A stretch of DNA of 64,000 nt from a virus (Duplodnaviria; Heunggongvirae; Uroviricota; Caudoviricetes): IMG/VR virus record IMGVR_UViG_3300026286_000004; one strand, written 5' to 3'. Position numbers and translations under genes: made by a program. Shown piece after piece: positions 970 through 62,583 of the stretch. Within the stretch, counting starts at the first letter, position 1. Each line of letters opens with the position of its first letter. The notes below the pieces were generated by a model. That model was given only the letters and a program-made list of their open reading frames with translations. It was not told where the DNA came from and made no database searches.

Positions 970-3900
970 ATGGCACGCGGCGGTATCAAGGACGTCCACT
1001 TCGACGTCACTCACCGGTGGGCGACGTCGATGGGGCGCGTCCACGACGGCGGGATCGTGCAGTCCTCTGACGGCGGTTCGACCTGGCTTTTTCGGTCCGT
1101 CCCGATGGGCCCGGTCGTTGATGCCCGGTCGCCGGCGGAATCCCTTCAGCCCGGCAGTCCGTTGATGCTCGCGTTCGACGAGCTGGCCGAACTCGCACCC
1201 CCGGCCCAGTTGAACCGGCGCCGGCTGGCGAAGTCCGGTTACCGCCGGATCCACTTGCTGCGGTTGCGGGTGCCGGCGAAGTATGTGCCGCCGGCGGAGT
1301 CGCAGCTGCGTGAGCACCTGTCGTCGACCTTCCACGACACGATGACGACCGCCTCCGTGCTGCTGATCGGGATCCAGTTGAAGGCGTCGGTGCGCCGGAC
1401 CGGCTGGCGCGACACGGCGGACGGGATCATTGCGTCCCTGACCGAGGGTGTCACTCCGGTCGGTGACTTCATGCGCGACGCCCGGCTGGTCGGCGACGCG
1501 ATGACGCGGTGCGGGCTGCAGGTGCCGACGGCGCAGCAGATGCAGCTGGCGAACTCGTGGTGGGCGGACTACGGCCAGCCGGACCCGCCGTACCTGATGC
1601 ACGCTGACCATCTGCACTCGTTCTCCTCGATGGAGGCGTTGCGGGCCGCCGCGAAGATCGGGCCGGACCGGTGCACCGACTGGGACAACATGCCCGGAAC
1701 GCACGCCCTCAGTTTCGCGACCGTTGCGGCGACGAACCTGTCGTACGTCCAAGCGGATAGCCCGTCCTCGCACTGGATGTCGGCGCTGCTGATGTCGGGT
1801 GCGCAGGCGATCTCGGTCCGCGGGCTGATCGAACCGCCGAAGGTGACCCGCGAGGAACTGCGGCGGATGCGCAAGGGCTACCAGGACGACATCCGGGAGC
1901 GCCTGAACGAGGGGAAGATGGAGCGCACCGAGCAGCTCGAGCTGGAACAGTCGCTGCAGGATGCGGAAGCCTTCTACGCCCAGGGCGGGACACCGACGCT
2001 GACGGACACCTCCGTCCTGGTCGCCTTTTCCGGCCGGCACCCGATCCACGGGTACGACCCGGTCCCGGTCGGGCAGCGTGCCGGGGTGACGCTCTACCCG
2101 ATGGTCAACCGGCAGCAAGAGGCATGGTCGGAGATGATGCCGTGCTCGAAGACGATGTCGAACCCGTATCTGCTGGACCTGCCGGCGCAGACGATCTCCT
2201 TCTCCGGCCTGCCGTCACTGTCGGTGGTCGGTGACAAGTCGGGAGCGCAGCCGGGATTCACCGAGACGGACAACCAGCCGGTCTTCATCGACCACATGGC
2301 GTCCGTCGACGAGGACACCCTCCCGATCGCGGTGATCGTGGGGCAGTCCGGGTCCGGTAAGGCGATGACGATTGACACGCGACTGCGGACGCCGTCCGGG
2401 TGGACGACGTTCGGCCTGGTCGATGTCGGCGACAAGGTCATCGGCTCGAACGGGCTGCCGTGCACGGTGCTGAACGTGACGACTCCGCAGGTCCGCGACG
2501 ACCTGCTCGAGGTCACCCTGAACGACGGCCAGTCGATGCGGGTCGACGGACAGCACCAGTTCGTCGCACGATTCCGCGGCTGGCCTGCCCGCGGGCTGCC
2601 GGAGCGGCTGGATGCGGCCAGCGGCCAGCTGGTCGAACTGGCCGAGTCGACCATCGACAAGGAGGTCGTGACCGCGCCGGCGCTGGCCCGGGAGTTGGCC
2701 GGCACGGGCGCAGGCGAGTTCTTCCCCTCCACGAACGCTGTCGCTGCGGCGCTGGCGATGATGGATGTCCGGCCGGGCACGCTCGGCCGGTACCGCAGAG
2801 CGGTCGCTCTGGCCGCCCTGGCAGCCCGGCTGAAGCAGCGTGCCAGCCATCCGGATGTCGCCGACGGCTGGATGGTCGTTTCGACGGCGGAGATGATCTC
2901 CACCGGTTCGGCGCAGCACTGGTCGCTGCCGTTGCCGGCCCCGGTCGCCGGCTCCGGGGAGAGCCTGGTTACCGATGCCCTTGCTGGGTGGCGCCCGTCG
3001 AAGGCGCTGCCGGAGCGGGTGATTTTCGCGCCAGTGGAGCAGCGCCGGGAACTGCTTCTGGACCTGATCCGCGGCCATGGGTCGATGCCGGGGGATTGCG
3101 AGTTCGCCGTGGCGGAGATGGCCGGCCTGTCCCCGGAAGGGGTCGAGTCGGTGCTGACGCTGGCCCGGTCGCTCGGGGTCTTCTCTGTCGAGGTCCCGTG
3201 GGGCGGTGGGGTCCGCCTCGCGATGACCGCGGACGGCTTCCCGGCCGTGTCATGCGTCGGGATCGAGACGATCGACGCGACCGGTGCGGACATCGTGTGC
3301 TGCATCGAGGTCGACTCGCCCGATTCGACGTTCCTGGTGGACGATCACGTGGTTACGCACAACACGCAGACGGCGCTCTTCTTGGCCGATCAGTACGCCC
3401 GGATGCGCACCAGCAGGGGCCAGCGCATCCCGATCGTGTTCGTCGACCCGAAGCTGGAGTCCAATCACTCCCGCACGGTCGCCCGGTCCGGCGGGACGGT
3501 CTTCTCGCTGGACCGGCTGATCACCTCCGACGGAGTGTTCGACCCGATCCGGTTCGCCAAGACGGCCGAGTCCGGGGCGTCCATGGCGGCCAGCATCATC
3601 CTCGAGGTCAACCCGTTCGGGTCGAAGATCGAGGACTACGAGACCGAGCTGATCCACTCGCTGAACTTCGGCGCCTCCAACGGGGCCCGGTGCACGATGG
3701 AAGCCCTGGCGATGGCTGAGACGGCCGGTCACGCATCCCGGGCGATGGTCGACCGGATCGAGAAGCTCGTTGCCGCGTCGACGTATTTCCGGGCGATGTG
3801 CGGCTCGGACCCGGAGGGTACCCCGCTGCAGGCGTCCGAGGGCATCACGTACATCATGCTCGGCTCGGCGCAGCTGAACTTGCCGGACCCGGACGCGAAG

Positions 3901-4491
3901 CACAAGGCCGACATCGGCCAGCGGACCGCGCTCGTGCTCGTCAAGGCGATGGTGTACGGCTCGATGATGGCGCTGGCCGGCCGGGAGGGCATCGTCATCC
4001 TGGACGAGGGCTGGATCTTCCTCGAGGCCGGCAAGTCCGAGGTCGTCCGTGCCGGGCGTCTGGCCCGGTCCTGGCAGGTGTGGCTGCTGCTGCTGACGCA
4101 GCGCGTCAAGGAGGTCGTGGACGCCGAGATCCAGCACTTCATCTCCCGCGGCGGGATCCTGCCGATGGAGGTGCAGTCGGAGGCGATCGCGGCGTGCCGG
4201 TTGTTCGGCCTGGAACCGACGGCGCAGCGACTGGAACGGATCACCGGGAAGGCGTCCCGCGCCGAGGGCGCATCGAACGCGCCGAACTGGAATTCGATGC
4301 GCGCGCTGCGTGACGACGACGGGAATGTGCTGCGTGGCTCGATCATGCTGTACTGCGACCAGAAGGGGCGCGCTGTCCCGGTCGAGGTGAAGATCCCACC
4401 GGCGTTCCTCGGGATCAGCTCGACGAGCCGGAAGGACATGCTCCGACGGGACAAGGCGTCCGCAGCAGTTCAGGATTCGTCCGCCGGTTAG
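970..4491 (+). CDS. VirB4/TrbE/TraC-family (conjugative T4SS-type) P-loop ATPase-like protein, interrupted by an intein
   Basis: 1173-aa ORF. Walker A GQSGSGK|T is split by an insertion at about residue 464. Walker B VILDEGW, then an LLLLTQ motif and an Arg-rich C-terminal domain. A ~460-aa N-terminal domain precedes the P-loop, as in VirB4-like ATPases. Confidence 0.6.
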   Translation: MARGGIKDVHFDVTHRWATSMGRVHDGGIVQSSDGGSTWLFRSVPMGPVVDARSPAESLQPGSPLMLAFDELAELAPPAQLNRRRLAKSGYRRIHLLRLRVPAKYVPPAESQLREHLSSTFHDTMTTASVLLIGIQLKASVRRTGWRDTADGIIASLTEGVTPVGDFMRDARLVGDAMTRCGLQVPTAQQMQLANSWWADYGQPDPPYLMHADHLHSFSSMEALRAAAKIGPDRCTDWDNMPGTHALSFATVAATNLSYVQADSPSSHWMSALLMSGAQAISVRGLIEPPKVTREELRRMRKGYQDDIRERLNEGKMERTEQLELEQSLQDAEAFYAQGGTPTLTDTSVLVAFSGRHPIHGYDPVPVGQRAGVTLYPMVNRQQEAWSEMMPCSKTMSNPYLLDLPAQTISFSGLPSLSVVGDKSGAQPGFTETDNQPVFIDHMASVDEDTLPIAVIVGQSGSGKAMTIDTRLRTPSGWTTFGLVDVGDKVIGSNGLPCTVLNVTTPQVRDDLLEVTLNDGQSMRVDGQHQFVARFRGWPARGLPERLDAASGQLVELAESTIDKEVVTAPALARELAGTGAGEFFPSTNAVAAALAMMDVRPGTLGRYRRAVALAALAARLKQRASHPDVADGWMVVSTAEMISTGSAQHWSLPLPAPVAGSGESLVTDALAGWRPSKALPERVIFAPVEQRRELLLDLIRGHGSMPGDCEFAVAEMAGLSPEGVESVLTLARSLGVFSVEVPWGGGVRLAMTADGFPAVSCVGIETIDATGADIVCCIEVDSPDSTFLVDDHVVTHNTQTALFLADQYARMRTSRGQRIPIVFVDPKLESNHSRTVARSGGTVFSLDRLITSDGVFDPIRFAKTAESGASMAASIILEVNPFGSKIEDYETELIHSLNFGASNGARCTMEALAMAETAGHASRAMVDRIEKLVAASTYFRAMCGSDPEGTPLQASEGITYIMLGSAQLNLPDPDAKHKADIGQRTALVLVKAMVYGSMMALAGREGIVILDEGWIFLEAGKSEVVRAGRLARSWQVWLLLLTQRVKEVVDAEIQHFISRGGILPMEVQSEAIAACRLFGLEPTAQRLERITGKASRAEGASNAPNWNSMRALRDDDGNVLRGSIMLYCDQKGRAVPVEVKIPPAFLGISSTSRKDMLRRDKASAAVQDSSAG
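2362..3363 (+). other. intein (334 aa) inserted between K and T of Walker A; class-3-like (Ala1, Cys in block F, Thr before the terminal HN); possible degenerate LAGLIDADG segment
   Basis: Block A is AMTIDTRLRTPSGW..VGDKV, block B is DGQHQF, block F is IVCCIEVD..STFLV and block G is DDHVVTHN followed by the +1 Thr. Excision restores GQSGSGKTQTALFL. The internal RRELLLDLIRGHGSM segment looks LAGLIDADG-like. Confidence 0.6.
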
Positions 4492-4526
4492 CGTGTTCAC
4501 CTCGTGCTCCCGCACTCATGTATGTC

Positions 4527-5657
4527 ATGAGTCTTGATCGCGTCATTCCCGCACGCCTTCCCGCAGCCCAGATCGACAACGAAGCCACCGCCATTGCCAG
4601 GGCGCACCAGAGCGGTGAGGTGGACTACGCCACGGCGATGACGTGGCTGAGCCGGCTCATCGTCCTGTCGACGATCCCGCACGAGGAGATGGTCACCCGC
4701 TTGCGCAGCGGGGCGTTGCGCAGGGAGGATGCCGTCACGGCTGAAGACCAGCTCCGGGACATGTTGTGCGACAAGCTCGATCCGACTCCGGGCGATACTC
4801 GGGTGAGGGCGGAGGTCGACTTCAAACTGCTGGCCGGCGGGTCGAGCTTTTCGGCGTGGATGCGCAGCTTCAGCGGCGCGCTGCTGGACCGCACGATCAT
4901 CCGTGGCGTGGGACGGTATCGCACCAAGAACATGCTGTCGCTGACAGGTTCGCTGGCGGATGCCGCCGGGTCGGACTATGTCACGGACGAGGACGCGGAG
5001 CGCGCCGACGACGAGTTGCATGTTCTCCACCGTCAACTGCGGGGCGCGAGCGAGGGGGCCAGCGTTATCGCGCGGTCGACGTCGTTGCTGCGGTACCGCC
5101 AGCTGCCGGAGCCGCGCCGCCCGGTTACGGAAGACGGCCGCCGGCAGGTGCGCGAGGCGATCAAGGCGGGCACGCTGGCGCAGTATCTGCGGTCCGGCCA
5201 CACCGGTCCGGTGCAGGATCTCTTTGCGGACTTCACGGCGGAGCAGGTTGGTGATCTGGACGCGTTGTCACTAGAACTGCTCGCAGAGTTGGCTATCACG
5301 CCGCTGCCGGCGATCTCTCGCACGGTCCAGCGGGAACTGGTCGCCTGGGCTGCTGCTCAGGTCCCGCGTGAGCACGCCGCGGCGGCTCGGGCCGTCACGG
5401 ATGCGTGGCTGACGCAGCGCACCGAGATCACGGGCGGCCGGGAAGGCCCGGTCGAGGTGAAGTCCGATCAGCAGCGGCTGCAGGAGCGCTCCGACTTCTG
5501 GACGGCGGCATCGGTGTTGCTGGATTCCTTCTGCTACGAGCTGGGGGAGACCATCGACGAGATCTCGACGGCCTTGCGGGAGCGGTACTTCACCATCGAG
5601 CGAGAGCGCTTCTTGAGCGCCCCGGAGGCGGCTCCGAGGAGTCAGACGACGGCCTGA
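4527..5657 (+). CDS. hypothetical protein
   Basis: Clean ORF with protein-like composition. A class-1 start motif (GCGTGTT-N18-TCATG-N6-ATG) precedes ATG 4527, and its first element overlaps the TAG stop of the upstream gene. Confidence 0.5.
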   Translation: MSLDRVIPARLPAAQIDNEATAIARAHQSGEVDYATAMTWLSRLIVLSTIPHEEMVTRLRSGALRREDAVTAEDQLRDMLCDKLDPTPGDTRVRAEVDFKLLAGGSSFSAWMRSFSGALLDRTIIRGVGRYRTKNMLSLTGSLADAAGSDYVTDEDAERADDELHVLHRQLRGASEGASVIARSTSLLRYRQLPEPRRPVTEDGRRQVREAIKAGTLAQYLRSGHTGPVQDLFADFTAEQVGDLDALSLELLAELAITPLPAISRTVQRELVAWAAAQVPREHAAAARAVTDAWLTQRTEITGGREGPVEVKSDQQRLQERSDFWTAASVLLDSFCYELGETIDEISTALRERYFTIERERFLSAPEAAPRSQTTA

Positions 5658-5778: not shown

Positions 5779-8700
5779 ATGGCAGCATCCGCCTCCCCGG
5801 CGACCCCCGGATTGACGATCAAGCGCATCCACACCACCGCGGGTGTTCACCCGTACGACGAGGTCGACTGGGAGGGCCGGGACGTCATCCAGACGAACCG
5901 GCGCACCGGCGAGACGATCTTCGACCAGCGTGGCGTGGAGTTCCCGACGTTCTGGTCGGAGAACTCATCGACGATCGCGGTCACGAAGTATTTCCGCGGC
6001 AAGCACGGCACCCCCGAGCGGGAGCACAGCCTCCGGCAGCTGATCGACCGGGTTGTGCTCACGTACGGCAAGGCGGGCCGCGAGCACGGCTACTTCGCCA
6101 CCGAGGATGACGCTGTCATCTTCGAGCACGAGCTGACGTACGCACTGCTGCACCAGATGTTCTCGTTCAACAGTCCGGTCTGGTTCAACGTCGGCACGAA
6201 GGCGAAGCAGGCCGTCTCGGCTTGCTTCATCCTGTCGGTCGCCGACTCGATGGAGTCGATCCTGAACTGGTACACCGAAGAGGGCATGATCTTCAAGGGC
6301 GGCTCGGGCGCCGGGGTGAACCTGTCCGCCATTCGCTCCTCCAAGGAGTTGCTCTCCTCCGGTGGCACGGCGTCCGGCCCGGTCTCGTTCATGCGTGGTG
6401 CGGACGCCTCCGCTGGCGGAATCAAGTCCGGTGGCGCGACCCGTCGTGCCGCCAAGATGGTCGTCCTCGACGTCGACCACCCCGACATCGTCGAGTTTGT
6501 CGAGACCAAGGCCCGCGAAGAGGACAAGATCCGCGCCCTGCGTGACGCCGGCTTCGACATGGACCTCGGCGGCAAGGACATCAACTCCGTCCAGTTCCAG
6601 AACGCCAACAACTCGGTCCGGGTCACGGACGAGTTCATGCGAGCCGTCGAGGCCGGGTCCGGCTTCGACTTGATCGCCCGCACCACCGGCGAGGTCGTCA
6701 AGTCCGTCGACGCCCGCGACCTGTGGCACCGGATCGCGAAGGCCGCGTGGGAGTGCGCCGACCCGGGCGTCCAGTACGACGGCACGATCCAGGACTGGCA
6801 CACCAACCCGGTCACCGGCCGGATCACCGCGTCCAACCCGTGTTGCTTCGTCGGGGACACCCTGGTGATGACCGGCGACGGGGATTACCGCACGATCCGC
6901 GGGATCACCGAGGATGTGGCCGCCGGGATCGACGTCGACGTCATGTCGTGGGATGCCGCCGAACGCTGCTTCACGATCAACCAGGTCAAGAAGGGCTGGG
7001 TCGCCGGCCGGACGAACAAGCTGGTCCGGCTGCGCACCTCCGCCGGGGCGGCAACCGTTTCGACGCCGGAGCACAAGCACATGCTCGTTGACGGCACCTG
7101 GGTGGAGGCGCAGGACCTGCTCTCCGGGATGCAGCTGCGGGCGCATGCCGACGAGATCGTCACGGTTGTCTCGGCGACGCTGTCCACGGACGGGCCTGAG
7201 GTCGACGTGTACGACCTCGAGGTCGAAGACACCCACACCTTCCTCGTCGGTGAACTGGGCCGCGACCCGGTCGTCGTGAGCAACAGCGAGTACATGTCCA
7301 TCGACAACAGCTCGTGCAACCTCGCGTCGATCAACCTGCTGAAGTTCCTGCGCGACGACGACACGTTCGATGCGCAGCGGTTCGCCGACCTGTGCGAGCT
7401 GGTCATCACCGCGATGGACATCTCGATCTGTTTCGCGGAGTTCCCGACGAAGGCGATCACGAAGAACACCCGCGACTATCGTCAGCTCGGCATCGGGTAC
7501 GCGAACCTCGGCGCGCTGCTGATGGCGACCGGGCACCCGTACGACTCCGACTCGGGCCGTCAGGTTGCGGCCAGCATCACGTCGCTGATGTCGGCTGCCT
7601 CGTACCGCCGGTCCGCGGAGCTGGCCGGCGTGTTCGGACCGTACGCCGGGTATAAGAAGAACACCGGCGCGCACCTGCGGGTCATCGGCAAGCATCACGC
7701 GGCGAACATCGACCTTCGGGTGACGGACGCCTTCGCCGCCCCGATCCACGACCTCGCGGGAGCCGAATGGGAGGCTGCGGAGCGTCTCGGCGTCCGTCAG
7801 GGCTTCCGGAACGCGCAGATTTCACTACTCGCGCCCACTGGCACGATCAGCTTCTTGATGAACTGCGACACGACCGGTATCGAGCCGGACTTCTCCCTGG
7901 TGAAGTTCAAGAAGCTCGTCGGCGGCGGGTCGATGAAGTTCGCGAACCTGACGATCCCGCGGGCGCTGCGCAAGCTCGGCTACGACGATGACACCGTGTC
8001 CGCGATCGTCGCGCACATCACCGAGCACGGCCACGTCCTGGACGCCCCCGGCTTGAAGACCGAGCACTACGCGATCTTCGACACCGCGATCGGGGCCCGG
8101 TCGATCTCCCCGATGGGCCACGTCAACATGATGGTTGCCTGCCAGCCGTTCCTCAGTGGCGCCATAAGCAAGACGATCAACCTTCCGGAGAGTGCGACCG
8201 TTGAAGATATCGAGGCCGTCTACATGGCCGGCTGGAAGCTGGGCCTGAAGGCTCTGGCGGTGTACCGGGACAACTGCAAGGTTGGTCAGCCGCTGTCCGA
8301 CGGAGCGGTCAAGCCGGTCGCTGTCGCTGACCCTGCGGCGCCCGCTGCAGCCGTCCCGGCGACGATCACGGCACCGGTCCCGGTCCGTGTTCGGCTGCCG
8401 CGCAAGCGGGTCAGTGAGACGACGTCGTTCACGGTCGGTGGGGCTGCCGGGTACTTGACGGCGGGCACCTATCCGGACGGTCGTATCGGGGAGTTGTTCA
8501 TGAAGTTCGGCAAGCAGGGCTCGACCCTGGCCGGCGTCATGGACTCGTTCTCGATCGCGATCTCCATCGCGCTGCAGTACGGGGTGCCGTTGGAGACGTT
8601 GGTGGAGAAGTTCACGAACACCCGGTTCGAGCCGGCCGGCCTGACAGACGACGCGGATATCCGGATAGCGCAGTCGCCGATGGACTACGTCTTCCGCCGG

Positions 8701-9033
8701 CTTGCTCTCGACCACATGGACTTCGAGACCCGGGCGTCGTATGGCATCTACACGGCAGCGGAGCGGGCCCGTCACCTCGAGACCGGGTCGTACGAGCCCG
8801 AGCTGGTCGAGGAGGAGATGGACGGATTGTCCGACGGCATCGGTGAAGACATGGTCCCGGCTCCGAAGCCGGCCCCGGCCGCGCTCCCGGCGCCGGTCCG
8901 CCATGACGCGCTGAACGAGGGCTTGCGCAAGTCCGAGGATGCCCCGCTGTGCTTCACCTGCGGGGTACGCATGGTGAGAGCTGGAAGTTGTTTCTCGTGC
9001 GAATCGTGCGGGGCGACGTCCGGTTGTAGCTAG
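5779..9033 (+). CDS. nrdJ: class II (adenosylcobalamin-dependent) ribonucleotide reductase NrdJ, intein-containing
   Basis: The N-terminal region and the NPC catalytic-cysteine motif are recognised from memory as NrdJ-like. The ORF carries a C-terminal CxxC..CxxC Zn ribbon and is 1084 aa including the intein. Confidence 0.85.
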   Translation: MAASASPATPGLTIKRIHTTAGVHPYDEVDWEGRDVIQTNRRTGETIFDQRGVEFPTFWSENSSTIAVTKYFRGKHGTPEREHSLRQLIDRVVLTYGKAGREHGYFATEDDAVIFEHELTYALLHQMFSFNSPVWFNVGTKAKQAVSACFILSVADSMESILNWYTEEGMIFKGGSGAGVNLSAIRSSKELLSSGGTASGPVSFMRGADASAGGIKSGGATRRAAKMVVLDVDHPDIVEFVETKAREEDKIRALRDAGFDMDLGGKDINSVQFQNANNSVRVTDEFMRAVEAGSGFDLIARTTGEVVKSVDARDLWHRIAKAAWECADPGVQYDGTIQDWHTNPVTGRITASNPCCFVGDTLVMTGDGDYRTIRGITEDVAAGIDVDVMSWDAAERCFTINQVKKGWVAGRTNKLVRLRTSAGAATVSTPEHKHMLVDGTWVEAQDLLSGMQLRAHADEIVTVVSATLSTDGPEVDVYDLEVEDTHTFLVGELGRDPVVVSNSEYMSIDNSSCNLASINLLKFLRDDDTFDAQRFADLCELVITAMDISICFAEFPTKAITKNTRDYRQLGIGYANLGALLMATGHPYDSDSGRQVAASITSLMSAASYRRSAELAGVFGPYAGYKKNTGAHLRVIGKHHAANIDLRVTDAFAAPIHDLAGAEWEAAERLGVRQGFRNAQISLLAPTGTISFLMNCDTTGIEPDFSLVKFKKLVGGGSMKFANLTIPRALRKLGYDDDTVSAIVAHITEHGHVLDAPGLKTEHYAIFDTAIGARSISPMGHVNMMVACQPFLSGAISKTINLPESATVEDIEAVYMAGWKLGLKALAVYRDNCKVGQPLSDGAVKPVAVADPAAPAAAVPATITAPVPVRVRLPRKRVSETTSFTVGGAAGYLTAGTYPDGRIGELFMKFGKQGSTLAGVMDSFSIAISIALQYGVPLETLVEKFTNTRFEPAGLTDDADIRIAQSPMDYVFRRLALDHMDFETRASYGIYTAAERARHLETGSYEPELVEEEMDGLSDGIGEDMVPAPKPAPAALPAPVRHDALNEGLRKSEDAPLCFTCGVRMVRAGSCFSCESCGATSGCS
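6844..7284 (+). other. mini-intein (147 aa, no endonuclease domain) inserted immediately after the catalytic Cys of NPC
   Basis: Sequence context is ASNPC|CFVGDTLVMTGDG...VYDLEVEDTHTFLVGELGRDPVVVSN|SEY. It has Cys1, a C-terminal Asn and a +1 Ser. The penultimate residue is Ser rather than His. Confidence 0.75.
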
Positions 9034-9563
9034 ACAGTTTGACCAGCACGGCAGGTTCGGGATGAACGTTTTCCCGGGCCTGCGGTGCTGTTTCTTGGGT
9101 CGGCTGCCGCATCGCTCTTGGCATGAACCATCGAACGGCAGATGACCCGGTCGGGGCAGTACCCGCTGTGGCTGGTGCCGCCGGACGACCAGTGCCCGAC
9201 GTACCGTCCGTCGGTGAAGCTGACCCTCGCCCGGCGCGTGGACGAGATGGTGCTGGCGACGCGGAACTGCGGCGAGAGGACGGTGCTGATCCTGCCTCCG
9301 GGCGGCTGCCACGCTCTCGGGGCTGCGCTGAGCCGGCTGGTGCGGACACGGTCACCGCTGCCGGTCTCTGCCTCGCTGGGGCGGTGTCACGGTGAAAGGT
9401 TTTCCCGTACGCCCATCAGGCTGCGGTGCCGGCGGTTCTGATCGACGCCCGGATCGCCCGGCTGGGCGGCCTGTTGCGGCGCCGGGTGCAGTTCGGGCTG
9501 ATCGAACTGCGCGATGCCTCGAGCATCTCGAGGAAATTGCTGAGCGCAGCCGGCTGAATCAAA

Positions 9564-9603
9564 CGAACAGGGTGCCGAGGATCTCTCCCCGGCACCCTGT
9601 TCG
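9564..9603. terminator. perfect 14-bp inverted repeat hairpin (cgaacagggtgccg / cggcaccctgttcg) with an 11-nt loop
   Basis: Seen directly in the sequence. It lies downstream of the small minus-strand ORF and shows no U-tract, as is usual in high-GC genomes. Confidence 0.4.
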
Positions 9604-9619
9604 GCGTGTGCTGAATCAG

Positions 9620-9684
9620 CCGTTGCGCCACTCCCAGTGGTCACCCTTGGTCACGGTGTTGCCGTTGCGCCACTCCCAGTGGTC
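9620..9684. repeat. two copies of a 23-bp direct repeat ccgttgcgccactcccagtggtc with a 19-bp spacer
   Basis: Exact copies at 9620-9642 and 9662-9684. Confidence 0.8.
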
Positions 9685-9763
9685 GGCCGCGGACAGACGC
9701 AGATGTCGCGCCGACGAAGACCGCGGTGGCCGCGAGCGTCACTGCTGCAATGCGACGAATCAT
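9641..9763 (-). CDS. possible small signal-peptide ORF (40 aa) preceded by an AGGGAG RBS
   Basis: Translates as MIRRIAAVTLAATAVFVGATSASV.., with RBS agggag 7 nt upstream. A Trp-rich repeat DHWEWRNG is encoded twice in the adjacent -1 frame. Confidence 0.2.
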   Translation of the reverse strand: MIRRIAAVTLAATAVFVGATSASVRGRPLGVAQRQHRDQG

Positions 9764-9899
9764 GTCGGCTCCCTGCTCTCTCGATTCCATGGGGTCGGTG
9801 CGTCAACATCCGGATTGATCACGCTCACGCTCCCCTGCTGAGATGTATGCGGCAAGGCACCTTGCCCCCGATGCGTAACGACCCTCTCTTACCGGAGTC

Positions 9900-10754
9900 A
9901 TGGATGGCATGACTGATCTCGTTGCACCTGGCGACCCGCGGCACGGCACGTACACGGGCTACAAGCAGCTTCGCTGTCGCTGCGAAGACTGCCGGGCAGC
10001 TCAGGCCCGGCGGTACCGGGAGAGGGTGCGCAAGGGCCTTCCGAAGAACGACCCGAAGCACGGGACGCTGACGGGGTACAACAACTACGGGTGCCGGTGC
10101 GAGCCCTGCTGCGAGGCGTATGCCGCGTACCGCCGCAAGAAGTTGTCCAACGGTCTTCCCGAGGGTGACTCGCGGCATGGGACGCTAACGGGGTACAACC
10201 ACTATGGGTGCCGGTGCGAGCCCTGCTGCGAGGCGGATGCCGCGCACCGCCGCAAGAAGATGTCCGGCGGCCTTCCCGAGGGTGACTCGCGGCATGGGAC
10301 GCTGACGGGGTACAACAAATACGGGTGCCGGTGCGATAAGTGCGGCGAAGCCCGTTCCGTGTACCGCCGCAAGAAGATGTCCGGCGGCCTTCCCGAGGGT
10401 GACTCGCGGCATGGGACGCTGACGGGGTACAGACACTATGGGTGCCGGTGCGAGCCCTGCTGCGAGGCGGATGCCGCGCACCGCCGCAAGAAGTTGTCCG
10501 GCGGCCTTCCCGAGGGCGATCCGCGGCACGGGACGCTGACGGGGTACAACCATCACGTATGCCGGTGCAAGCCCTGCTGCGAGGCGCTTGCCGCGTACCG
10601 CCGCAAGAAGGCGTCCGGCGGCCTTCCGAAGAACGACCCGAAGCACGGGACGACGACGGGGTACGACAACTACGGGTGCCGGTGCGAGTCCTGTCGTCGA
10701 GGGTATGCCGCGTACCGGCGAGAACGCAGGCAACGGCCTGACCCCGCCGCCTGA
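9900..10754 (+). CDS. Cys-rich tandem-repeat protein: seven 40-aa repeats, each with an [28 protein letters not shown] motif (putative Zn-binding or DNA-binding module)
   Basis: Seven near-identical 120-bp DNA repeats. Each unit is P(E/K)(G/N)D(S/P)(R/K)[20 protein letters not shown](D/Y)AA(H/Y)RRKK(L/M)SGGL. Class-1 promoter motif upstream at 9873-9911. Confidence 0.7.
9945..10735 (+). repeat. seven ~120-bp near-identical tandem direct repeats (coding)
   Basis: Seen directly. Shadow ORFs on the opposite strand (9898..11013, 10185..10733) are artefacts of this repeat. Confidence 0.85.
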
Positions 10755-10767
10755 CCGGCTGTCTCCG

Positions 10768-10783
10768 GCAAAGAGGGAGTATG
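10768..10783 (+). promoter_or_regulatory. class-2 start element GGCAAAGAG-N5-ATG (thyA)
   Basis: One of 9 copies. The others lie before starts at 13033, 20746, 25599, 31913, 38212, 43021 and 60520(-), plus an orphan at 5690. Confidence 0.55.
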
Positions 10784-11572
10784 CGACAGTACCTCGACCT
10801 GATGCAACGAGTCCTCGACGAGGGTGTGGAGCGCCCGGACCGCACCGGCACGGGCACGCTCGGGGTCTTCGGCCACCAGATGCGCTTCGACCTCGCCGAC
10901 GGGTTCCCCGTCGTGACCACCAAGAAGCTGCACCTGCGCTCGATCATCGGTGAGCTGCTGTGGTTCCTGCGCGGCGACACGAACGTGGCGTGGCTGAACG
11001 AGCGCGGCATCACGATCTGGGACGAGTGGGCCGACGAGAACGGCGACCTCGGGCCGGTATACGGCTACCAGTGGAGATCGTGGCCGGCACCGGATGGCCG
11101 CAGCATCGACCAGATCGCGGACGTGATCGCCTCGATCCGGTCCAACCCGAACGGCCGCCGGCATGTCGTGTCCGCATGGAACCCGGCCGACGTCGACAAG
11201 CAGGCCCTGCCGCCGTGTCACGCACTGTTCCAATTCCACGTTGCGGACGGACGCCTGTCGTGCCAGCTGTACCAGCGGTCTGCGGACATCTTCCTCGGTG
11301 TCCCGTTCAATATCGCCTCGTATGCCCTGCTCACCCACCTCGTCGCCCAGCAGACCGGGCTTGAGGTCGGCGACTTCGTGCACACCCTCGGCGATGCCCA
11401 CCTCTATCTCAACCACCTCGATCAGGCCCGCGAGCAGCTGGCCCGCGAGCCCTTCCCGCTGCCGACCCTGCGATTGACGCCGCGGGAGTCCATCGACGCC
11501 TACGAGTTGGAGGACGTCGAGCTGGTCGGCTACCAGGCGCACCCGTCGATCAAGGCGCCGATCGCGGTATGA
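10781..11572 (+). CDS. thyA: thymidylate synthase ThyA
   Basis: [38 protein letters not shown]..., ending PIAV. Confidence 0.9.
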
Positions 11573-11630
11573 GCACGTGGTGGAGCCGGTGCCAAGACCG
11601 GACCGTGAAGTCAACCGTGGGGATGGCAGC

Positions 11631-12872
11631 ATGATCACCTTGATCGCGGCGGTCGCGCAGAACCGGGTGATCGGGAACGGGCCACAGATCCCGTGGCGGG
11701 TACCGGGGGAGCAGGAGCATTTCCGGGACACCACGATGGGCCACGCCGTCATCATGGGCCGGGCCACGTTCGACTCTATCGGCCGGGGGCTGCCGGGCCG
11801 GCGCGTCATCGTCGTCACGCGCGCACCGATCGTTTCCCATCCGGACGTCGAGACCGCGTCGAGCCTGGATGACGCGATCGCGTTGGCCGGGGCCGGCACG
11901 GAGATTTTCATCGCCGGCGGCGGGCAGCTCTACGAGGCGGCGATGCCGTACGCGGATCGGTTGATCCTGTCGGAGATTCCGCTGGCGCCGGACGGCGACG
12001 TGCTGTTCCCGGAGTTCACGCTGTTCGACGGCCGGGATCTGCTGACCCGTCCAAGCCTCGATGCGTGGGTGGAGACCAGCCGCGCCGACCACTGGTCCTT
12101 TCAGGTGGTCACGTACGCCCGCCCGGTGCCCGTGCACGACCCGGACGCCCCGGTCCTGGTCGCCGGCGACTGGCACGGCGAGGTTAGGCTGGCGGTGGCT
12201 GCGGTCCAGGCCGCGAAGGGGCGCGGGATCGACCTGATCCTGCACACGGGCGATTTCGGGATCTGGCGCGGCGACGAGTTCTTTCTCGACGCCCTGCAAC
12301 GCGAGCTGGAGGCTGCCGGCGTCCAGTTGTGGTTCGTCGATGGCAACCATGAGGACTTCGAGCGGTTGTACGCCTATGCGCCGGACCCGGATGGCCGCCG
12401 CCGGGTGCGCCGGTCGGTGTGGCATCTGCCGCGCGGGCACCGGTTCGCCGCGGCCGGCCGGTCGTGGCTGGCGTGCGGCGGGGCGGCGTCGATCGACCGA
12501 TCGTTCCGGACCCCGGTTCTCAACTGGTGGCCGCAGGAGACGATCACGCAGGCGGATCTACACCGGTGCGCCATCGGCGGCCGCGTTGATGCCCTGCTTG
12601 TCCACGAGGCCCCGGATGAGTCGCCGACGTTGCGGGCCGCGTATGCCAGCCCGTCGCAGTGGCCGGAGTCCGGACTGGCCGAGTCGGAGCAGTCGCGCCG
12701 GATGATCTCGGCGCTGGTCGCGGCGACCGGGCCGCGGTTCCTCTTCCACGGTCACCATCACCTGCGGTACGTCGACGTCCTCGACGAGTTGACGATCACA
12801 GGCCTCGGGACGCTCCCGAGCGACAACCTGGCCGTCTTCGACGGCGAGACGATCGAGCTGCTCGGACCGTGA
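11631..12872 (+). CDS. folA: dihydrofolate reductase (N-terminal ~165 aa) fused in frame to a calcineurin-like metallophosphoesterase domain
   Basis: DHFR N-terminus MITLIAAVAQNRVIGNGPQIPWRVPGEQEHF. Phosphoesterase motifs follow from about residue 175: GDWHGE, TGDFG, VDGNHE, FHGHHH. The ATG at 11631 has a GGGGATGG RBS-like upstream sequence and sits 59 nt after the thyA stop. Confidence 0.8.
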   Translation: MITLIAAVAQNRVIGNGPQIPWRVPGEQEHFRDTTMGHAVIMGRATFDSIGRGLPGRRVIVVTRAPIVSHPDVETASSLDDAIALAGAGTEIFIAGGGQLYEAAMPYADRLILSEIPLAPDGDVLFPEFTLFDGRDLLTRPSLDAWVETSRADHWSFQVVTYARPVPVHDPDAPVLVAGDWHGEVRLAVAAVQAAKGRGIDLILHTGDFGIWRGDEFFLDALQRELEAAGVQLWFVDGNHEDFERLYAYAPDPDGRRRVRRSVWHLPRGHRFAAAGRSWLACGGAASIDRSFRTPVLNWWPQETITQADLHRCAIGGRVDALLVHEAPDESPTLRAAYASPSQWPESGLAESEQSRRMISALVAATGPRFLFHGHHHLRYVDVLDELTITGLGTLPSDNLAVFDGETIELLGP

Positions 12873-12965
12873 CATCTCGCCGCGCGAAATGCTTCCGCCC
12901 GAAGTGTCCATATGGTAAGATGCGCACACTGCGATAGAGGCTATGTCCGCGGGAACGGGAAGCCT

Positions 12966-12998
12966 GAGAGGCGAGGTCAGAAATGGCCTCGCCTCTCG
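12966..12998. terminator. 11-bp perfect inverted repeat hairpin (gagaggcgagg / cctcgcctctc) between the folA fusion and dinG
   Basis: Seen in sequence. Confidence 0.4.
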
Positions 12999-13032
12999 CC
13001 GTCTCCGGGCCGGCCTGCGGCAAAGAGGAAGC

Positions 13033-15324
13033 GTGACGATCCCTGATGCCGACGCTCTGCACGCGACTCTCGATGATGTCCTGACCCGGACCGTCATCGA
13101 GATCACCGGCGACCCGGACGCGAAGCCGCGGCCTGGGCAGTCCGCTCTCGCGCACGACATCCTGACCGCGATGATCAACGCGACGTCACGCGATGCGCAG
13201 GCCGGCTCCGACCATGTGCTCGGGTGCGCCCCGACCGGCGTCGGCAAGGCGATCGCGTGCGCCGCCCCGGCCGCCGTCATGGCTGCGAAGCGCGGTCACC
13301 GGACGGTTGTGTCGACCGAGTCGCTGGCGTTGCAGGCCCAACTGCTGACCAAGGATCTGCCGGACATCGCGAACGCGATCTTGAACGCGACCGGGCACGA
13401 GCTGACGTTCTCGGTCCGCAAGGGATGGTCGAACTACGGCTGCGTCGTCCAGGCCGTCACGAAGCTGCGCTCCGACCTCGAGCTTGCCGGGATCAAGGAC
13501 ACCATCCCGGACCCGGCGGACACCGACCCGGAAGAGGTCGTCGACGCGGCGATGACCATCATCCAGGACCACCCGGAACTGGACACTGCCCTGGTGAACT
13601 GGGTTCTCCTGGAAGCCATCTCCGGTGGTGAGGGAGACCGGGCGACGTGCGATGAGGACGTGACCGAGTGGGACAAGGTGTCCATCGGCCCGACCGAATG
13701 CCTCGGCAACCAGGACAAGGGCTGCCCGTTCGCGAAGCAGTGCCCGGCCGTCCGGGGCCGTGAGGCGTCGCGGGAGTCCGACATCGTCGTCACCAACCAT
13801 TCGCTGCTCGCGGTGCAGGCATCCCAGTCGGCGCCCGTGCTGCTGTCGAACCCGTCCAACGGGTTGTTTCGGCACCTGATCATCGACGAGGCGCACGCCC
13901 TGCCCGGCCAGGTCCGCGGTGCCGGGGCGCGAGACCTGTCGGCTCGCCGGATCACGCGGGTCGCCCGGGAACTGGCCCGCAACTTCGGCACGATCAACGA
14001 CTTGAAGGCGCCCGCCGTGGACGCCGTCGTCGACGACGGCTACCTGGTCGCGACCGAGGTCGACCACCTGGTGACGGCGTGGGTGCGCGGCCAGGTCGGC
14101 GAGACCCCGGCCCTGCCGCCCGATCTCAGCACGACAAGCCTTTCACCGATCTACGACAAGCTGCTCACCTGGGGTGCCGCGGTGAAGCGGGCTCTGCCCG
14201 GTGGCGACGGCCTGCCGACGTCGGCCGAGCTGTCCCGGCATCGCGTCCTGGGGCAGCTCGGATCGTTGCTGCGAGACGTGTCCGACCTGTTCGACCCGGA
14301 CGTTGCCGCGGCCCGGTGGGTCGAGGTCGGTCATGTCACCGACTCCGAGCGCGCCCGTGGCTGGACCGGTCTCGTGATGCGTTTGTCCCCGATCGACGTG
14401 TCGGAGGCGATCTCCGGCAACCTGTTCTCCACGACCGACCGGAAGCCGGGGGAGAAGCGCCCGAAGGACGAGGTGGAGCCGCGGCTCCCTTTGTCGGTGT
14501 CGATGGTGTCGGCGACCTTGCCGGCGGGTTTCGCCCGCGAGTCCGGGATCCGTGCGAAGGCGCAGGAGTACGAGTCGCCGTTCGCGACCGCGTACGAGAA
14601 TTCGATGCTCTACGTCCCGCGCGTCGACGACCCGGCCGAGCTGGCACGGATCGCGACCCGCAACGAGCGTGGCCGGTGGCGGTTCGACGTCTACCGGCAC
14701 CCGCAGTGGGCGGCCGACTACGTGACCGAACTGGTCAGCGCCAACGACGGCTACGCGCTCGTGCTGGCGGCGACGGCGGCGACCGGGAAGATGTATGCCG
14801 ACGAGTTGCGCCGTCGCACCCGGCTGCACGTCCACTCCCAGTGGGACGGCGGTGACCCGGCCCGGATCGCGGCGTCCTGGAAGGACGACCCGTCATCGGT
14901 CATGGTGGGCACGAAGTCGTTCATGACGGGCTTGGACGCGGCCGGGGACACGTGCTCCCTGGTCATCATCGACCGGGTGCCGCGGGCCCCGCAGAACGTC
15001 GTCGACGACGCCCGGGCGCAACTGCTGATGGACGAACTCGACATCGACAAGTGGGCAGCGGACCGGATGGTCTACGGCGCGGACGCCTCGCTGACGTTCG
15101 AGCAGGCCCTCGGCCGGTTGATCCGCCGGGTGTCCGACCACGGGATGGCGGTCTGCCTGGATCCGCGGCTGATGAAGAACGCCCCGCTGTCGCAGCCGGA
15201 GACGACCCGGGCGGCGTACATGGCGGCGGCCCGCCACTTCACGCGCCGCACGTCCAGCAAGGCGGACGCTCTCGCGTTCCTGCGCGAGCAGGCGGCTGCC
15301 CGGGCCGTGGCCGGGGCAGCGTAA
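13033..15324 (+). CDS. dinG: DinG/XPD-family Fe-S DNA helicase-like protein
   Basis: CAPTGVGKA P-loop (K followed by A rather than T/S), a DEAH box LIIDEAHAL, and a 4-Cys cluster CLGNQDKGCPFAKQCPAV. The class-2 element GGCAAAGAG lies 5 nt before GTG 13033. The ORF is open from 12943. Confidence 0.8.
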   Translation: MTIPDADALHATLDDVLTRTVIEITGDPDAKPRPGQSALAHDILTAMINATSRDAQAGSDHVLGCAPTGVGKAIACAAPAAVMAAKRGHRTVVSTESLALQAQLLTKDLPDIANAILNATGHELTFSVRKGWSNYGCVVQAVTKLRSDLELAGIKDTIPDPADTDPEEVVDAAMTIIQDHPELDTALVNWVLLEAISGGEGDRATCDEDVTEWDKVSIGPTECLGNQDKGCPFAKQCPAVRGREASRESDIVVTNHSLLAVQASQSAPVLLSNPSNGLFRHLIIDEAHALPGQVRGAGARDLSARRITRVARELARNFGTINDLKAPAVDAVVDDGYLVATEVDHLVTAWVRGQVGETPALPPDLSTTSLSPIYDKLLTWGAAVKRALPGGDGLPTSAELSRHRVLGQLGSLLRDVSDLFDPDVAAARWVEVGHVTDSERARGWTGLVMRLSPIDVSEAISGNLFSTTDRKPGEKRPKDEVEPRLPLSVSMVSATLPAGFARESGIRAKAQEYESPFATAYENSMLYVPRVDDPAELARIATRNERGRWRFDVYRHPQWAADYVTELVSANDGYALVLAATAATGKMYADELRRRTRLHVHSQWDGGDPARIAASWKDDPSSVMVGTKSFMTGLDAAGDTCSLVIIDRVPRAPQNVVDDARAQLLMDELDIDKWAADRMVYGADASLTFEQALGRLIRRVSDHGMAVCLDPRLMKNAPLSQPETTRAAYMAAARHFTRRTSSKADALAFLREQAAARAVAGAA

Positions 15325-32572: not shown

Positions 32573-32574
32573 GC

Positions 32575-35106: not shown

Positions 35107-35145
35107 GCGTAACGACCGTCGCTGACCGGCGTCATCTGCGGCATG
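35107..35145 (+). promoter_or_regulatory. class-1 start-associated motif (representative): GCGTAACGACCGTCGCTGACCGGCGTCATCTGCGGCATG
   Basis: GCGTAAC-N18-TCATC-N7-ATG. One of about 25-30 copies. Confidence 0.6.
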
Positions 35146-39401: not shown

Positions 39402-39907
39402 TGGACAGTCAGGTGGCCGACCGCATCGAGGCCGAACACCCGGAGTACCGGTTCCGGCGCCGCGATGATGGCACGGTGCACGACTGGGGCACCCAGCCGC
39501 TGCACGCCGTCGGCGAGTTCGCCAGGCGGATACCGTTCGCGTTCCGGGTCTTTCACGGCCGAGCGCACCTGTGGCTGGGCCGGTCGGTCGACCCGGTCGC
39601 CTCGGCGCACCTGGAAAGCCTGACCGCCGCCGCGATGGACGACATCGCCGGAATCTTCGCCACCCTCGCTGCGAAGGTCGCCGTCGACGTCGTGCACGGT
39701 TTCACCACGGGAGACACGGTCGTGGTCGTTTCCGCGGTGCCCGGTTCTTCCTGGCACATCACGACGATCGGGACAATCATCGGCTGCGACGATGTGTGGC
39801 TGTTCGTCGACACCGGCGATGCGCTGCCGTTCGGGACTGCGGTCCGGCGGGCACGGATCGTCTCGGTGCGTGCCCACGACCTGGTACCGGCATCAACATC
39901 GGCATGA
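39401..39907 (+). CDS. hypothetical protein
   Basis: TGATGG-coupled start. Confidence 0.45.
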   Translation: MDSQVADRIEAEHPEYRFRRRDDGTVHDWGTQPLHAVGEFARRIPFAFRVFHGRAHLWLGRSVDPVASAHLESLTAAAMDDIAGIFATLAAKVAVDVVHGFTTGDTVVVVSAVPGSSWHITTIGTIIGCDDVWLFVDTGDALPFGTAVRRARIVSVRAHDLVPASTSA

Positions 39908-40473
39908 GTGAGATCTGGCTGACGTCCGACTTGCATTTCGGGCACCCGCACGTCGCGCGGTTGCGCGGCTTTGACGACGTTGACGACCACGACAAGCACG
40001 TCGTGGGGAACCTGTCCCGGATGGTGCGCCACCGCGACGAGCTGTTCGTCCTCGGCGACCTGAGCGTCGGCCGGCTCGACCAGGCCCTCGCGTTGATGGC
40101 GTCCGTCCCGGGGACGAAACACCTGATCCTCGGCAACCACGACGCGGCATTCCCGGGGGCGCGCGGGCACCGGTCCGCGTTCCGCCGCTACCTCGACGTG
40201 TTCGCCACCGTGGCCCTGCACGGCGCGCTGCGAACCGACCACGGACAGATCCTGCTGTCGCACTTCCCGTACGAGGGCGACCACGGCCCGGACCGGTTCA
40301 CGCAGTGGCGGTTGCGGGACAACGGGTTCCCTGTCGTGCACGGGCACACGCACGGCCCGGAACGGTTGACCACATCCGGCGCCGGTAGCGCCCAGGTCCA
40401 TGTCGGCCTGGACGCCTGGGACATGGGACCGGCCAGCGTGCACGACGTCACCGCCTTGATCGGGAGCCGATGA
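39904..40473 (+). CDS. calcineurin-like metallophosphoesterase (second copy in this window)
   Basis: Motifs SDLHFGH, GDL, GNHD and GHTHG. ATGA-coupled start. Confidence 0.65.
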   Translation: MSEIWLTSDLHFGHPHVARLRGFDDVDDHDKHVVGNLSRMVRHRDELFVLGDLSVGRLDQALALMASVPGTKHLILGNHDAAFPGARGHRSAFRRYLDVFATVALHGALRTDHGQILLSHFPYEGDHGPDRFTQWRLRDNGFPVVHGHTHGPERLTTSGAGSAQVHVGLDAWDMGPASVHDVTALIGSR

Positions 40474-62489: not shown

Positions 62490-62583
62490 CGCTTCTTCTC
62501 TCCCGAAAGCACTTGTGCTGCAAGGTTTCGCAGCCACCGGGCGGTGTCACTCAGGCCGTCGCGGAAAGCCTGCGCGGCAGCCC

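Follow-up and report, generated by a model that had tools for sequence, protein, structure and literature searches.

Dihydrofolate reductase (DHFR) is covalently joined to thymidylate synthase (TS) in the bifunctional enzymes of protozoa and plants, and in these enzymes dihydrofolate is passed between the two sites. Among phage metallophosphoesterases (MPEs), gp48 of mycobacteriophage A10ZJ24 breaks down DNA in vitro and, in vivo, the DNA of the host (PMC12287305). The phosphodiesterase and DNase activities of this type of phage MPE aid phage replication, and such an MPE is a precedent for countering defence (PMC12287305). In this study, we analyzed a stretch of 64,000 nucleotides (nt) that is filed as a tailed virus (Caudoviricetes) in the IMG/VR record IMGVR_UViG_3300026286_000004; hereafter, the whole of this stretch is called the window. 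In the window, thyA is followed by one open reading frame (ORF) in which a DHFR continues without a stop codon into an MPE. Judged from its sequence, this fusion gene is real, expressed-looking and lineage-specific. Its parts are as follows.

10781..11572, plus strand: thyA, thymidylate synthase, 263 amino acids (Pfam PF00303 (Thymidylat_synt), NCBIfam NF002497)
11573..11630, plus strand: spacer of 58 nt between thyA and the fusion gene, which holds a GGGGA run and GTG 11577
11631..12872, plus strand: fusion gene, 413 amino acids, DHFR, linker and MPE (Pfam, PHROGs, database gene calls)
11631..12122, plus strand: DHFR domain, residues 1-164 (alignment with E. coli FolA and free-standing DHFRs of 155 amino acids)
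12123..12152, plus strand: linker PVPVHDPDAP, residues 165-174, no stop codon (sequence and alignment)
12153..12872, plus strand: MPE domain, residues 175-413, plus stop codon (five metal-ligand motifs)
12165-12179, plus strand: MPE motif I, GDWHG (sequence)
12249-12260, plus strand: MPE motif II, GDFG (sequence)
12342-12353, plus strand: MPE motif III, GNHE (sequence)
12603-12605, plus strand: MPE motif IV, H325 (sequence)
12750-12761, plus strand: MPE motif V, GHHH (sequence)

ThyA matched Pfam PF00303 with an E-value of 2e-124 and exceeded the cut-off of the NCBIfam equivalog NF002497 (469 bits; cut-off, 327 bits). Because thyA ends at its own stop codon (11570-11572), it is a gene separate from the fusion ORF. 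The mechanically listed ORF (11577..12872, plus strand) starts from GTG and encodes 431 amino acids, with no stop codon between the two domains. In this ORF, DHFR_1 (PF00186) was matched at residues 19-148 (E-value 2e-43; 148.3 bits against a cut-off of 25) and Metallophos (PF00149) at residues 192-395 (E-value 1.3e-11; 45.8 bits against 21.5). Metallophos_2 was also matched (E-value 6.4e-9; 36.4 bits against 27). In the PHROGs collection, the single polypeptide matched both phrog_316 (DHFR; E-value 1.9e-36) and phrog_1649 (metallophosphoesterase; E-value 4.3e-38). The original prediction, made from the letters of the window alone, was an in-frame fusion of DHFR to a calcineurin-like phosphoesterase after thyA. 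This prediction was borne out, given that both domains lie above the Pfam cut-offs in one ORF, and only the start codon needed correction. Translation most likely starts at ATG 11631 (413 amino acids) rather than GTG 11577, because the ATG is preceded, at a distance of 8 nt, by a GGGGA Shine-Dalgarno-like run, because the G+C content at third codon positions (GC3) of the 54-nt GTG extension (11577-11630) is 0.67 as compared with 0.90 in the gene and its neighbors, and because all database gene calls are 413 amino acids long. Residue numbers in this text refer to the 413-amino-acid protein; the Pfam match ranges (19-148 and 192-395) refer to the 431-amino-acid ORF. A promoter and terminator scan of positions 9000-13500 gave no promoter-like site, and the sole terminator-like hairpin in this region is outside the operon.

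The exact 413-amino-acid protein is indexed in 35 blocks of a public collection, 16 of which hold contigs of 50-200 kb. The identical protein is encoded by at least 24 contigs, which come from JGI metagenomes, ENA, Logan assemblies and a metagenome-assembled genome (MAG) at NCBI (GCA_036736985.1; 161-kb contig). In six more full-length variants (96-100% identity), the frame is intact and no metal ligand or catalytic residue has changed. When the window was compared with a 97.7%-identical gene (L001), no coding indel was observed, and the ratio of nonsynonymous to synonymous substitution (dN/dS) was approximately 0.35 in the DHFR half and approximately 0.40 in the MPE half. Moreover, GC3 is 0.80-0.97 in every 90-nt segment in a single frame, and it is approximately 0.90 through the junction. 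The reading of the fusion as an indel artefact is largely refuted.

By alignment, the N-terminal half is a complete FolA-type DHFR. It is complete through the last beta-strand (...VVTYAR164) in an end-to-end alignment with E. coli FolA and five homologues, and the closest free-standing DHFRs of 155 amino acids terminate one residue past the position of R164. The catalytic acid E27 (11709-11711), R44, R52, R57, the GGG at residues 96-98 (11916-11924), Y101 and S114 are retained. The fusion protein has a 12-residue loop insertion of its own in front of the penultimate strand (approximately residues 134-145), which the homologues lack; this loop holds four substitutions that separate the variants. 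In a phmmer search of the PDB, the DHFR half matched the B. anthracis DHFR (E-value 5e-32). Against the NCBIfam equivalog for type 3 DHFR (NF008037), the fusion protein scored 109.7 bits, below the cut-off of 168. Among the trimethoprim-resistance Dfr families of NCBIfam, the best match was DfrA3, with 125.6 bits against a cut-off of 350. Therefore, the fusion protein can be assigned to no named resistance Dfr.

The 10-residue linker corresponds to, and does not exceed, the N-terminal tail that precedes the first beta-strand in free-standing MPE relatives (N-terminal consensus of the family, MxxxxxxPxRIxVAGDWHG), and it is invariant between the window and L001. The MPE half contains all five metal-ligand motifs of the superfamily (DxH, GD, GNH(D/E), H and GHxH). 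The phosphoesterase motifs quoted in the original prediction are all present, and the metal-ligand set is complete on the family alignment. In alignments of 117 and 90 members of the MPE family, D180, H182, N239, H240, H325, H373, H375 and H377 are invariant and D208 is nearly so.

The structure model of the MPE half is confident (predicted local distance difference test score (pLDDT), 95.7) and shows the beta-alpha-beta-alpha-beta sandwich fold of the calcineurin-like superfamily. In the fold comparison, the nearest folds were Dbr1 (18.7), aq_1956 (18.5), TT1561 (18.2), CWF19L1 (17.3), Lmo2642 (16.6) and Mre11 (15-16). Rv0805 gave 14.3, and the PPP protein phosphatases PP5 and calcineurin were remote (about 8). 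In a viral structure library, an "esterase" of a cluster L mycobacteriophage and phage proteins with an automatic Dbr1-like annotation matched best. A sequence search of the PDB with the MPE half alone gave no match at an E-value of 1 or below; with a profile of the MPE family, the best sequence match in the PDB was Dbr1, and this match was weak (E-value 5e-5). The MPE half is not a PPP Ser/Thr phosphatase, given that its motif II is GDFGIW and not GDxVDRG. In Dbr1 enzymes, motif I has Cys instead of Asp, and both a C-terminal domain and a lariat-recognition loop are present. An identity as Dbr1 was rejected as well: the window protein has Asp180 in motif I, is without the C-terminal domain and shares approximately 15% identity, and Dbr1 is a structural neighbor only. 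Thus, as far as the structure model indicates, the MPE half is a generic two-metal phosphoesterase, the closest folds of which act on nucleic-acid or nucleotide phosphodiesters. No named NCBIfam family was found for either phosphoesterase of the window (the other one is described below), and no PADLOC defence model matched the fusion or either phosphoesterase. A full-length AlphaFold2 model, for which only MPE homologues were in the alignment, had a mean pLDDT of 75.6, with a confident MPE half and most of the DHFR below 50. The DHFR half scored low because it had no alignment depth; this model is uninformative on domain packing and was discarded.

We then compared the fusion with public collections. 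A HMMER scan covered 1.84 billion protein-cluster representatives. Among the best 150 matches (at least 136 bits), the single two-domain match was the fusion protein's own cluster; a fusion of DHFR with a phosphoesterase of another family could lie outside these best 150. No record in the phage and plasmid collections covered 80% or more of the fusion query, and scans of IMG/VR and of the GTDB representative genomes with the fusion protein gave only single-domain relatives. These results agree with the earlier view that the architecture is non-standard. L069 was considered as a second fusion because its match seemed to reach the DHFR region; it proved to be an MPE that carries an unrelated tail at its N-terminus and seems to be frameshifted. 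Similarly, P0131 in the list of the best 150 representatives is not a natural fusion but an engineered fluorescent-protein-DHFR-DHFR construct. Other partners of DHFR were found on short contigs only: P0270 (L104, 271-1221) is a DHFR-Nudix hydrolase fusion of 316 amino acids in which the Nudix box is present, and P0027 is a DHFR-enoyl-CoA hydratase fusion of 423 amino acids. P0270 and P0027 resemble the window fusion in having related actinobacterial-type DHFRs (44% and 59% identity, respectively) and a second enzyme at the C-terminus, and differ from it in the partner domain. As these sequences demonstrate, DHFRs of this clade have acquired C-terminal fusion partners repeatedly; no single function common to the fusions is indicated. 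A DHFR-MPE combination did not come up in full-text searches of the literature on DHFR fusions; it appears to be undescribed and is confined to one lineage. Because both halves belong to well-known enzyme superfamilies, the protein does not represent a new kind of system; what is new is the combination of domains.

The two halves have different relatives. The DHFR half is 54-62% identical to free-standing DHFRs, the contigs of which show the chromosomal gene order dapA, (RNase J), thyA, folA, and the window ThyA is 73-77% identical to the ThyA proteins of chromosomal actinobacterial thyA-folA loci. The MPE half is 38-53% identical to single-domain proteins of 244-300 amino acids. These MPE relatives are encoded by actinophages (Gaia gp143, LeBron gp46, Atuin gp65 and Grayson gp166), by large plasmids of Mycobacterium, Rhodococcus, Arthrobacter and Tsukamurella (for example, WP_051074000 of pMYCSM02), and by viral contigs and many Streptosporangiaceae-type genomes and MAGs.

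The original prediction had also suggested that the fusion couples dTMP synthesis to dephosphorylation of nucleotides or phosphoproteins. In 75 loci with an unfused MPE (fetched DNA, with as much as 10 kb of flanking sequence to either side), none encodes ThyA, DHFR or ribonucleotide reductase (RNR). Conversely, none of 14 loci with a relative of the DHFR encodes the phosphoesterase. When the neighbors of 72 unfused MPE genes were clustered, an SDR-type oxidoreductase and a large P-loop protein recurred in up to 19 loci; all these loci are in related Streptosporangiaceae-type chromosomes, and the recurrence is most simply explained by shared ancestry, not functional linkage. In Arthrobacter phage Atuin (L008, genes 62-65) and Rhodococcus phage Grayson (L009, genes 166-169), the MPE is beside a phosphoribosyl pyrophosphate (PRPP)-synthetase-like and nicotinate-phosphoribosyltransferase-like pair. 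This pair was not seen adjoining the MPE homologues of Gaia or of the phages in clusters J and L. In Gaia and ThreeRngTarjay, the neighbors are small hypothetical genes and tRNAs, and in cluster L phages the MPE gene follows the immunity switch in the early region, with Band-7 and Ro-like genes close by. Because co-occurrence was absent in both directions and the phage neighbors are heterogeneous, there is no comparative support for a general tie between the MPE family and the folate cycle. The same applies to a specific tie to the thymidylate cycle, and the suggested coupling of dTMP synthesis to dephosphorylation found no support in our analysis. As a separate observation, the Atuin and Grayson pair, which is annotated as phosphoribosyl (pyrophosphate) transferase and nicotinate phosphoribosyltransferase, resembles phage modules for NAD+ salvage or reconstitution; the two phages are large and unrelated.

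The fusion gene belongs to a cassette within a conserved backbone, and the following features define it.

4518-5657: backbone gene p379, the left border of the cassette
5779..12872, plus strand: accessory nucleotide-synthesis cassette with RNR, small ORFs, repeat protein, thyA and DHFR-MPE (comparison with related elements)
5779-9033, plus strand: class II (B12-dependent) RNR, 1084 amino acids, with an intein-like insertion (PT-HINT / Intein_splicing, residues approximately 372-500) and a C-terminal TSCPD
9900-10754, plus strand: 39-amino-acid-repeat protein, 284 amino acids (tandem repeat at 10058-10717, 5.6 copies of 117 nt)
13033-15324: DinG-like helicase, the right border of the cassette

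The backbone (19-5657 and 13033-15324 of the window) consists of a 316-amino-acid protein (p316), an AAA_10 ATPase of approximately 1170 amino acids, a protein of approximately 380 amino acids and the DinG-like helicase. It is shared with metagenomic relatives (L095-L098 and L105), the helicases of which are 48-59% identical to that of the window, and with the megaplasmid pACHL01 of Pseudarthrobacter chlorophenolicus, where the local order is a protein of approximately 350 amino acids, the ATPase, a protein of approximately 387 amino acids, a small ORF and the DinG-like helicase. At the site of the cassette, L095-L098 and pACHL01 have nothing, a 135-amino-acid TSCPD remnant or a 147-amino-acid ORF, and they are without thyA and DHFR-MPE. 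For example, the gap between the p379 homologue and the helicase holds nothing in L097 and L098, and in L095 and L096 it holds the 135-amino-acid TSCPD ORF, which is 58% identical to the C-terminus of the window RNR. Because these relatives lack the cassette genes between the p379 homologue and the helicase, positions 5779-12872 are an accessory cassette at a variable site. The repeat protein is encoded directly upstream of thyA. Its Cys-rich unit is HGTLTGYxxYGCRCExCCEA...RRKK. The matches of the protein were to phage families of the "HTH DNA binding", HNH and integrase N-terminal repeat types (phrog_14857; E-value 1e-40). A hairpin with a perfect 18-bp stem, 12 G-C pairs and a 4-nt loop lies between the RNR and repeat-protein genes (9564-9603); it is terminator-like on the minus strand only, where no gene ends nearby.

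From these comparisons, we propose that the gene is probably a lineage-specific, opportunistic fusion of adjacent genes, which gives a bifunctional protein with co-expression and without channelling. We rated this reading best because the MPE family is otherwise never linked to folate genes. In the order of events that we suggest, a chromosome-derived thyA-folA pair would have been captured into the accessory nucleotide-supply cassette (class II RNR, ThyA and DHFR). The stop codon of folA and the start codon of the next gene, a free-standing MPE, would then have been lost between the abutting genes. Because the linker is no longer than the N-terminal tail of free-standing MPEs, this loss is the simplest origin. 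As a result, the last beta-strand of the DHFR now joins the first beta-strand of the MPE via the 10-residue linker. In the cassette, RNR would make deoxynucleoside diphosphates or triphosphates (dNDPs or dNTPs), and ThyA would make dTMP with release of dihydrofolate. The DHFR half, as its conserved residues suggest, would reduce this dihydrofolate to tetrahydrofolate and thereby sustain dTMP synthesis during replication of the element. The MPE half, likewise from its conserved residues, would be an independent two-metal phosphodiesterase or phosphomonoesterase; its fold makes a nucleotide or nucleic-acid phosphoester a more likely substrate than a phosphoprotein. The gain from the fusion is most probably obligatory co-expression and co-localization rather than substrate channelling.

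Several observations weigh against an opportunistic but intact fusion. The fusion occurs in one tight cluster only (at least 96% identity), and the estimate of purifying selection rests on 29 nucleotide differences. One contig (L100; ENA ERZ22160093 NODE_27519; 1.6 kb, 1.45x) carries a 96%-type variant with an 83-nt deletion equivalent to 12046-12128 and CCCGT microhomology at the borders. In this contig, the end of the DHFR is lost, the junction is frameshifted, and the gene caller begins a 246-amino-acid phosphoesterase at the GTG of codon 168. The deletion is either a minority genotype, in which loss of the fusion is tolerated, or an assembly error. Furthermore, internal initiation at GTG 12126 or GTG 12132 may produce a separate phosphoesterase; the only Shine-Dalgarno-like run near these codons is AGGTGG (12103-12108), 17-23 nt upstream. 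Finally, the persistence of the fusion across many samples could mean that the linkage is useful, which would favor coupling of the two activities. On the strength of L100, the fusion might be regarded as an assembly or sequencing artefact, with genes that are really separate, or as a decaying pseudogene with one dead half. We consider this extremely improbable: different projects, with different assemblers, obtained the same unbroken ORF on the 24 or more contigs, up to 161 kb in length; in the six variants, neither the frame nor any catalytic residue is lost; both halves have a dN/dS below 1; and the coding GC3 signal is continuous.

Alternatively, the MPE may make or salvage substrates of the thymidylate cycle, by hydrolysis of dUTP/dCTP-type nucleotides or by conversion of host DNA or RNA to mononucleotides, while tethered to DHFR and ThyA in a dNTP-synthesis complex of the mobile element. 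The dNTP-synthetase complex of phage T4 includes DHFR, and we counted it as a precedent. The position of the gene in a cassette with class II RNR and thyA, and a fold nearest to the nucleic-acid phosphodiesterases Dbr1 and Mre11, are in keeping with this idea, and the DHFR-Nudix protein P0270 shows that fusions of DHFR with a phosphohydrolase arose more than once. A10ZJ24 gp48, a phage MPE of another family, degrades DNA (PMC12287305), but gp48 and Bxb1 gp47 are not homologous to the MPE half beyond the superfamily (hhalign probability, 3.7%). Moreover, the 75 unfused loci are uniformly without ThyA, DHFR and RNR within approximately 10 kb, the phage relatives sit among unrelated early or accessory genes, and the fusion is restricted to one lineage. 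Thus, coupling in deoxynucleotide supply is unlikely in this specific form. In general terms, coupling to nucleotide or nucleic-acid metabolism is possible, and the phosphoprotein variant of the proposed coupling is unlikely. Carried further, the fusion could be a Rosetta-stone clue that the whole MPE family works in deoxynucleotide supply, in which case tethering to DHFR, and thereby to ThyA and RNR, would place the MPE in a plasmid-encoded dNTP-synthesis complex that converts host nucleic acid or non-canonical nucleotides into replication precursors; we hold this to be very doubtful. The distribution of the family suggests another role. Nearly all members of the MPE family come from actinophages, megaplasmids or integrated elements; in cluster L, the gene lies early, directly after the immunity switch, and in Atuin and Grayson it adjoins the phosphoribosyltransferase pair. 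A phage metallophosphoesterase is a precedent for countering defence (PMC12287305). Accordingly, the MPE might be an anti-defence or host-takeover enzyme that acts on signalling nucleotides, ADP-ribose derivatives or host nucleic acid, with the DHFR as a neutral passenger. However, no defence-related PADLOC model was matched and the neighbors differ between phage clusters; we regard this role as unlikely.

If the two halves of the opportunistic fusion act independently, it is an ordinary lineage-specific gene fusion. The main value of the finding is the handle that it gives on the substrate of a large phosphoesterase family of actinophages and megaplasmids: the fusion to a folate-cycle enzyme in an RNR-thyA cassette provides a cheap and concrete hypothesis, namely a nucleotide or nucleic-acid substrate. 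In addition, it indicates that a dTMP-synthesis module of their own can be encoded on megaplasmid-like elements of Actinomycetota.

The remainder of the window bears on the nature of the element, and the following features are relevant.

44260-45489, plus strand: IrrE/ArdC-like metalloprotease (PHROG anti-restriction match)
45680-50296, minus strand: FtsK/SpoIIIE- and TrwB coupling-protein-like ATPase, 1538 amino acids
28643-30625, 32566-33372, 35143-35832, 35891-36877, 51940-53103 (minus strand) and 63061-63831 (minus strand): repair- and maintenance-type genes
61209-62537, minus strand: protein of 442 amino acids with WGR and poly(ADP-ribose) polymerase (PARP) catalytic domains (Pfam, E-values 3.5e-11 and 1.4e-11; PHROGs "polymerase")
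39904..40473, plus strand: free-standing small metallophosphoesterase, 189 amino acids (phrog_547, E-value 2e-43; motifs DLHFGH, GD, GNHD and GHTH)

The G+C content is 66-71% throughout the window. Scans of the window for tRNAs and Rfam families were empty, and no virion or structural gene was found among the window ORFs screened. The 1173-amino-acid AAA_10-type ATPase is 40-45% identical to proteins on plasmids of 375-610 kb from Curtobacterium, Arthrobacter, Pseudarthrobacter and Paenarthrobacter; against phages, it gave only short, weak segment matches. With the adjacent helicase as the query, IMG/VR yielded no relative. A phage origin of the window is unlikely, given the lack of structural genes and a backbone that is syntenic with megaplasmids of Micrococcales. 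The shared backbone indicates that the window is part of a large megaplasmid-like mobile element of a high-GC actinobacterium rather than a phage, and the FtsK/TrwB-like protein and the adjoining ArdC-like protein suggest DNA-transfer functions. The repair set comprises an NAD-dependent DNA ligase with BRCT, an RNA-ligase-like protein, an RlaP RNA-repair nucleotidyltransferase, a Band-7/SPFH protein and a MoxR-type AAA_5 ATPase with a VWA/DUF2201 partner; a RecG-like helicase and DnaQ-like exonucleases are also encoded in the window. In related elements and cluster L phages, Ro60/TROVE genes are near homologues of the repair-set genes. The WGR-PARP protein represents a PARP-like enzyme encoded by a mobile element of bacteria.

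The second phosphoesterase of the window (39904..40473), which had also been predicted, is real and belongs to a different family. Its homologues were found in 308 phage records, mostly of actinophages. Comparison with the family of the fused MPE gave an hhalign probability of 0.8%, and the two are thus unrelated beyond the superfamily level.

Among the known systems, A10ZJ24 gp48 and Bxb1 gp47 are functional analogues of the fused MPE in that they are two-metal phosphoesterases encoded by mobile elements. Unlike the window protein, they are not fused to DHFR, and they have no significant BLASTP alignment with it. We rejected transfer of their function to the MPE half: they belong to another family (hhalign probability, 3.7%), and the best BLASTP match covered 43 residues with an E-value of 0.11. 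Because gp48 is of a different family, it is an analogy, not evidence, for the function of the fused MPE. In the RefSeq record of Bxb1 (L099; gp47 at 8021-8788), the label "recombination directionality factor" (RDF) stands on the 46-amino-acid gp46, and gp47 is labelled metallo-phosphoesterase. The published RDF of Bxb1 is gp47, and the RefSeq product names therefore look shifted by one gene.

Dbr1 and Mre11/SbcD share the nearest folds but only approximately 15% identity, and the window domain (248 amino acids) has Asp in motif I and is without the C-terminal domain of Dbr1 or the capping domain of Mre11. Closer are the free-standing phrog_1649 MPEs (Gaia gp143, LeBron gp46, Atuin gp65 and WP_051074000 of pMYCSM02), with which the MPE half shares 34-53% identity over approximately 210-245 residues, the invariant metal-ligand set and the mobile-element habitat. 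These proteins are single-domain, and none is fused to DHFR or adjoins folate or thymidylate genes. Chromosomal actinobacterial FolA (type 3 DHFR; 54-62% identity) can be aligned with the DHFR half from end to end; the two have the catalytic and cofactor-binding residues in common, and thyA is upstream of both. In contrast to the 155 amino acids of FolA, the window protein adds the 12-residue loop and a second enzyme, and it scores below the NF008037 cut-off. Finally, as in the bifunctional DHFR-TS, DHFR is covalently joined to another enzyme in the context of dTMP synthesis. However, ThyA of the window is a separate protein (stop codon at 11570-11572; 58-nt spacer), and the partner fused to the DHFR is a phosphoesterase without a known role in the folate cycle.

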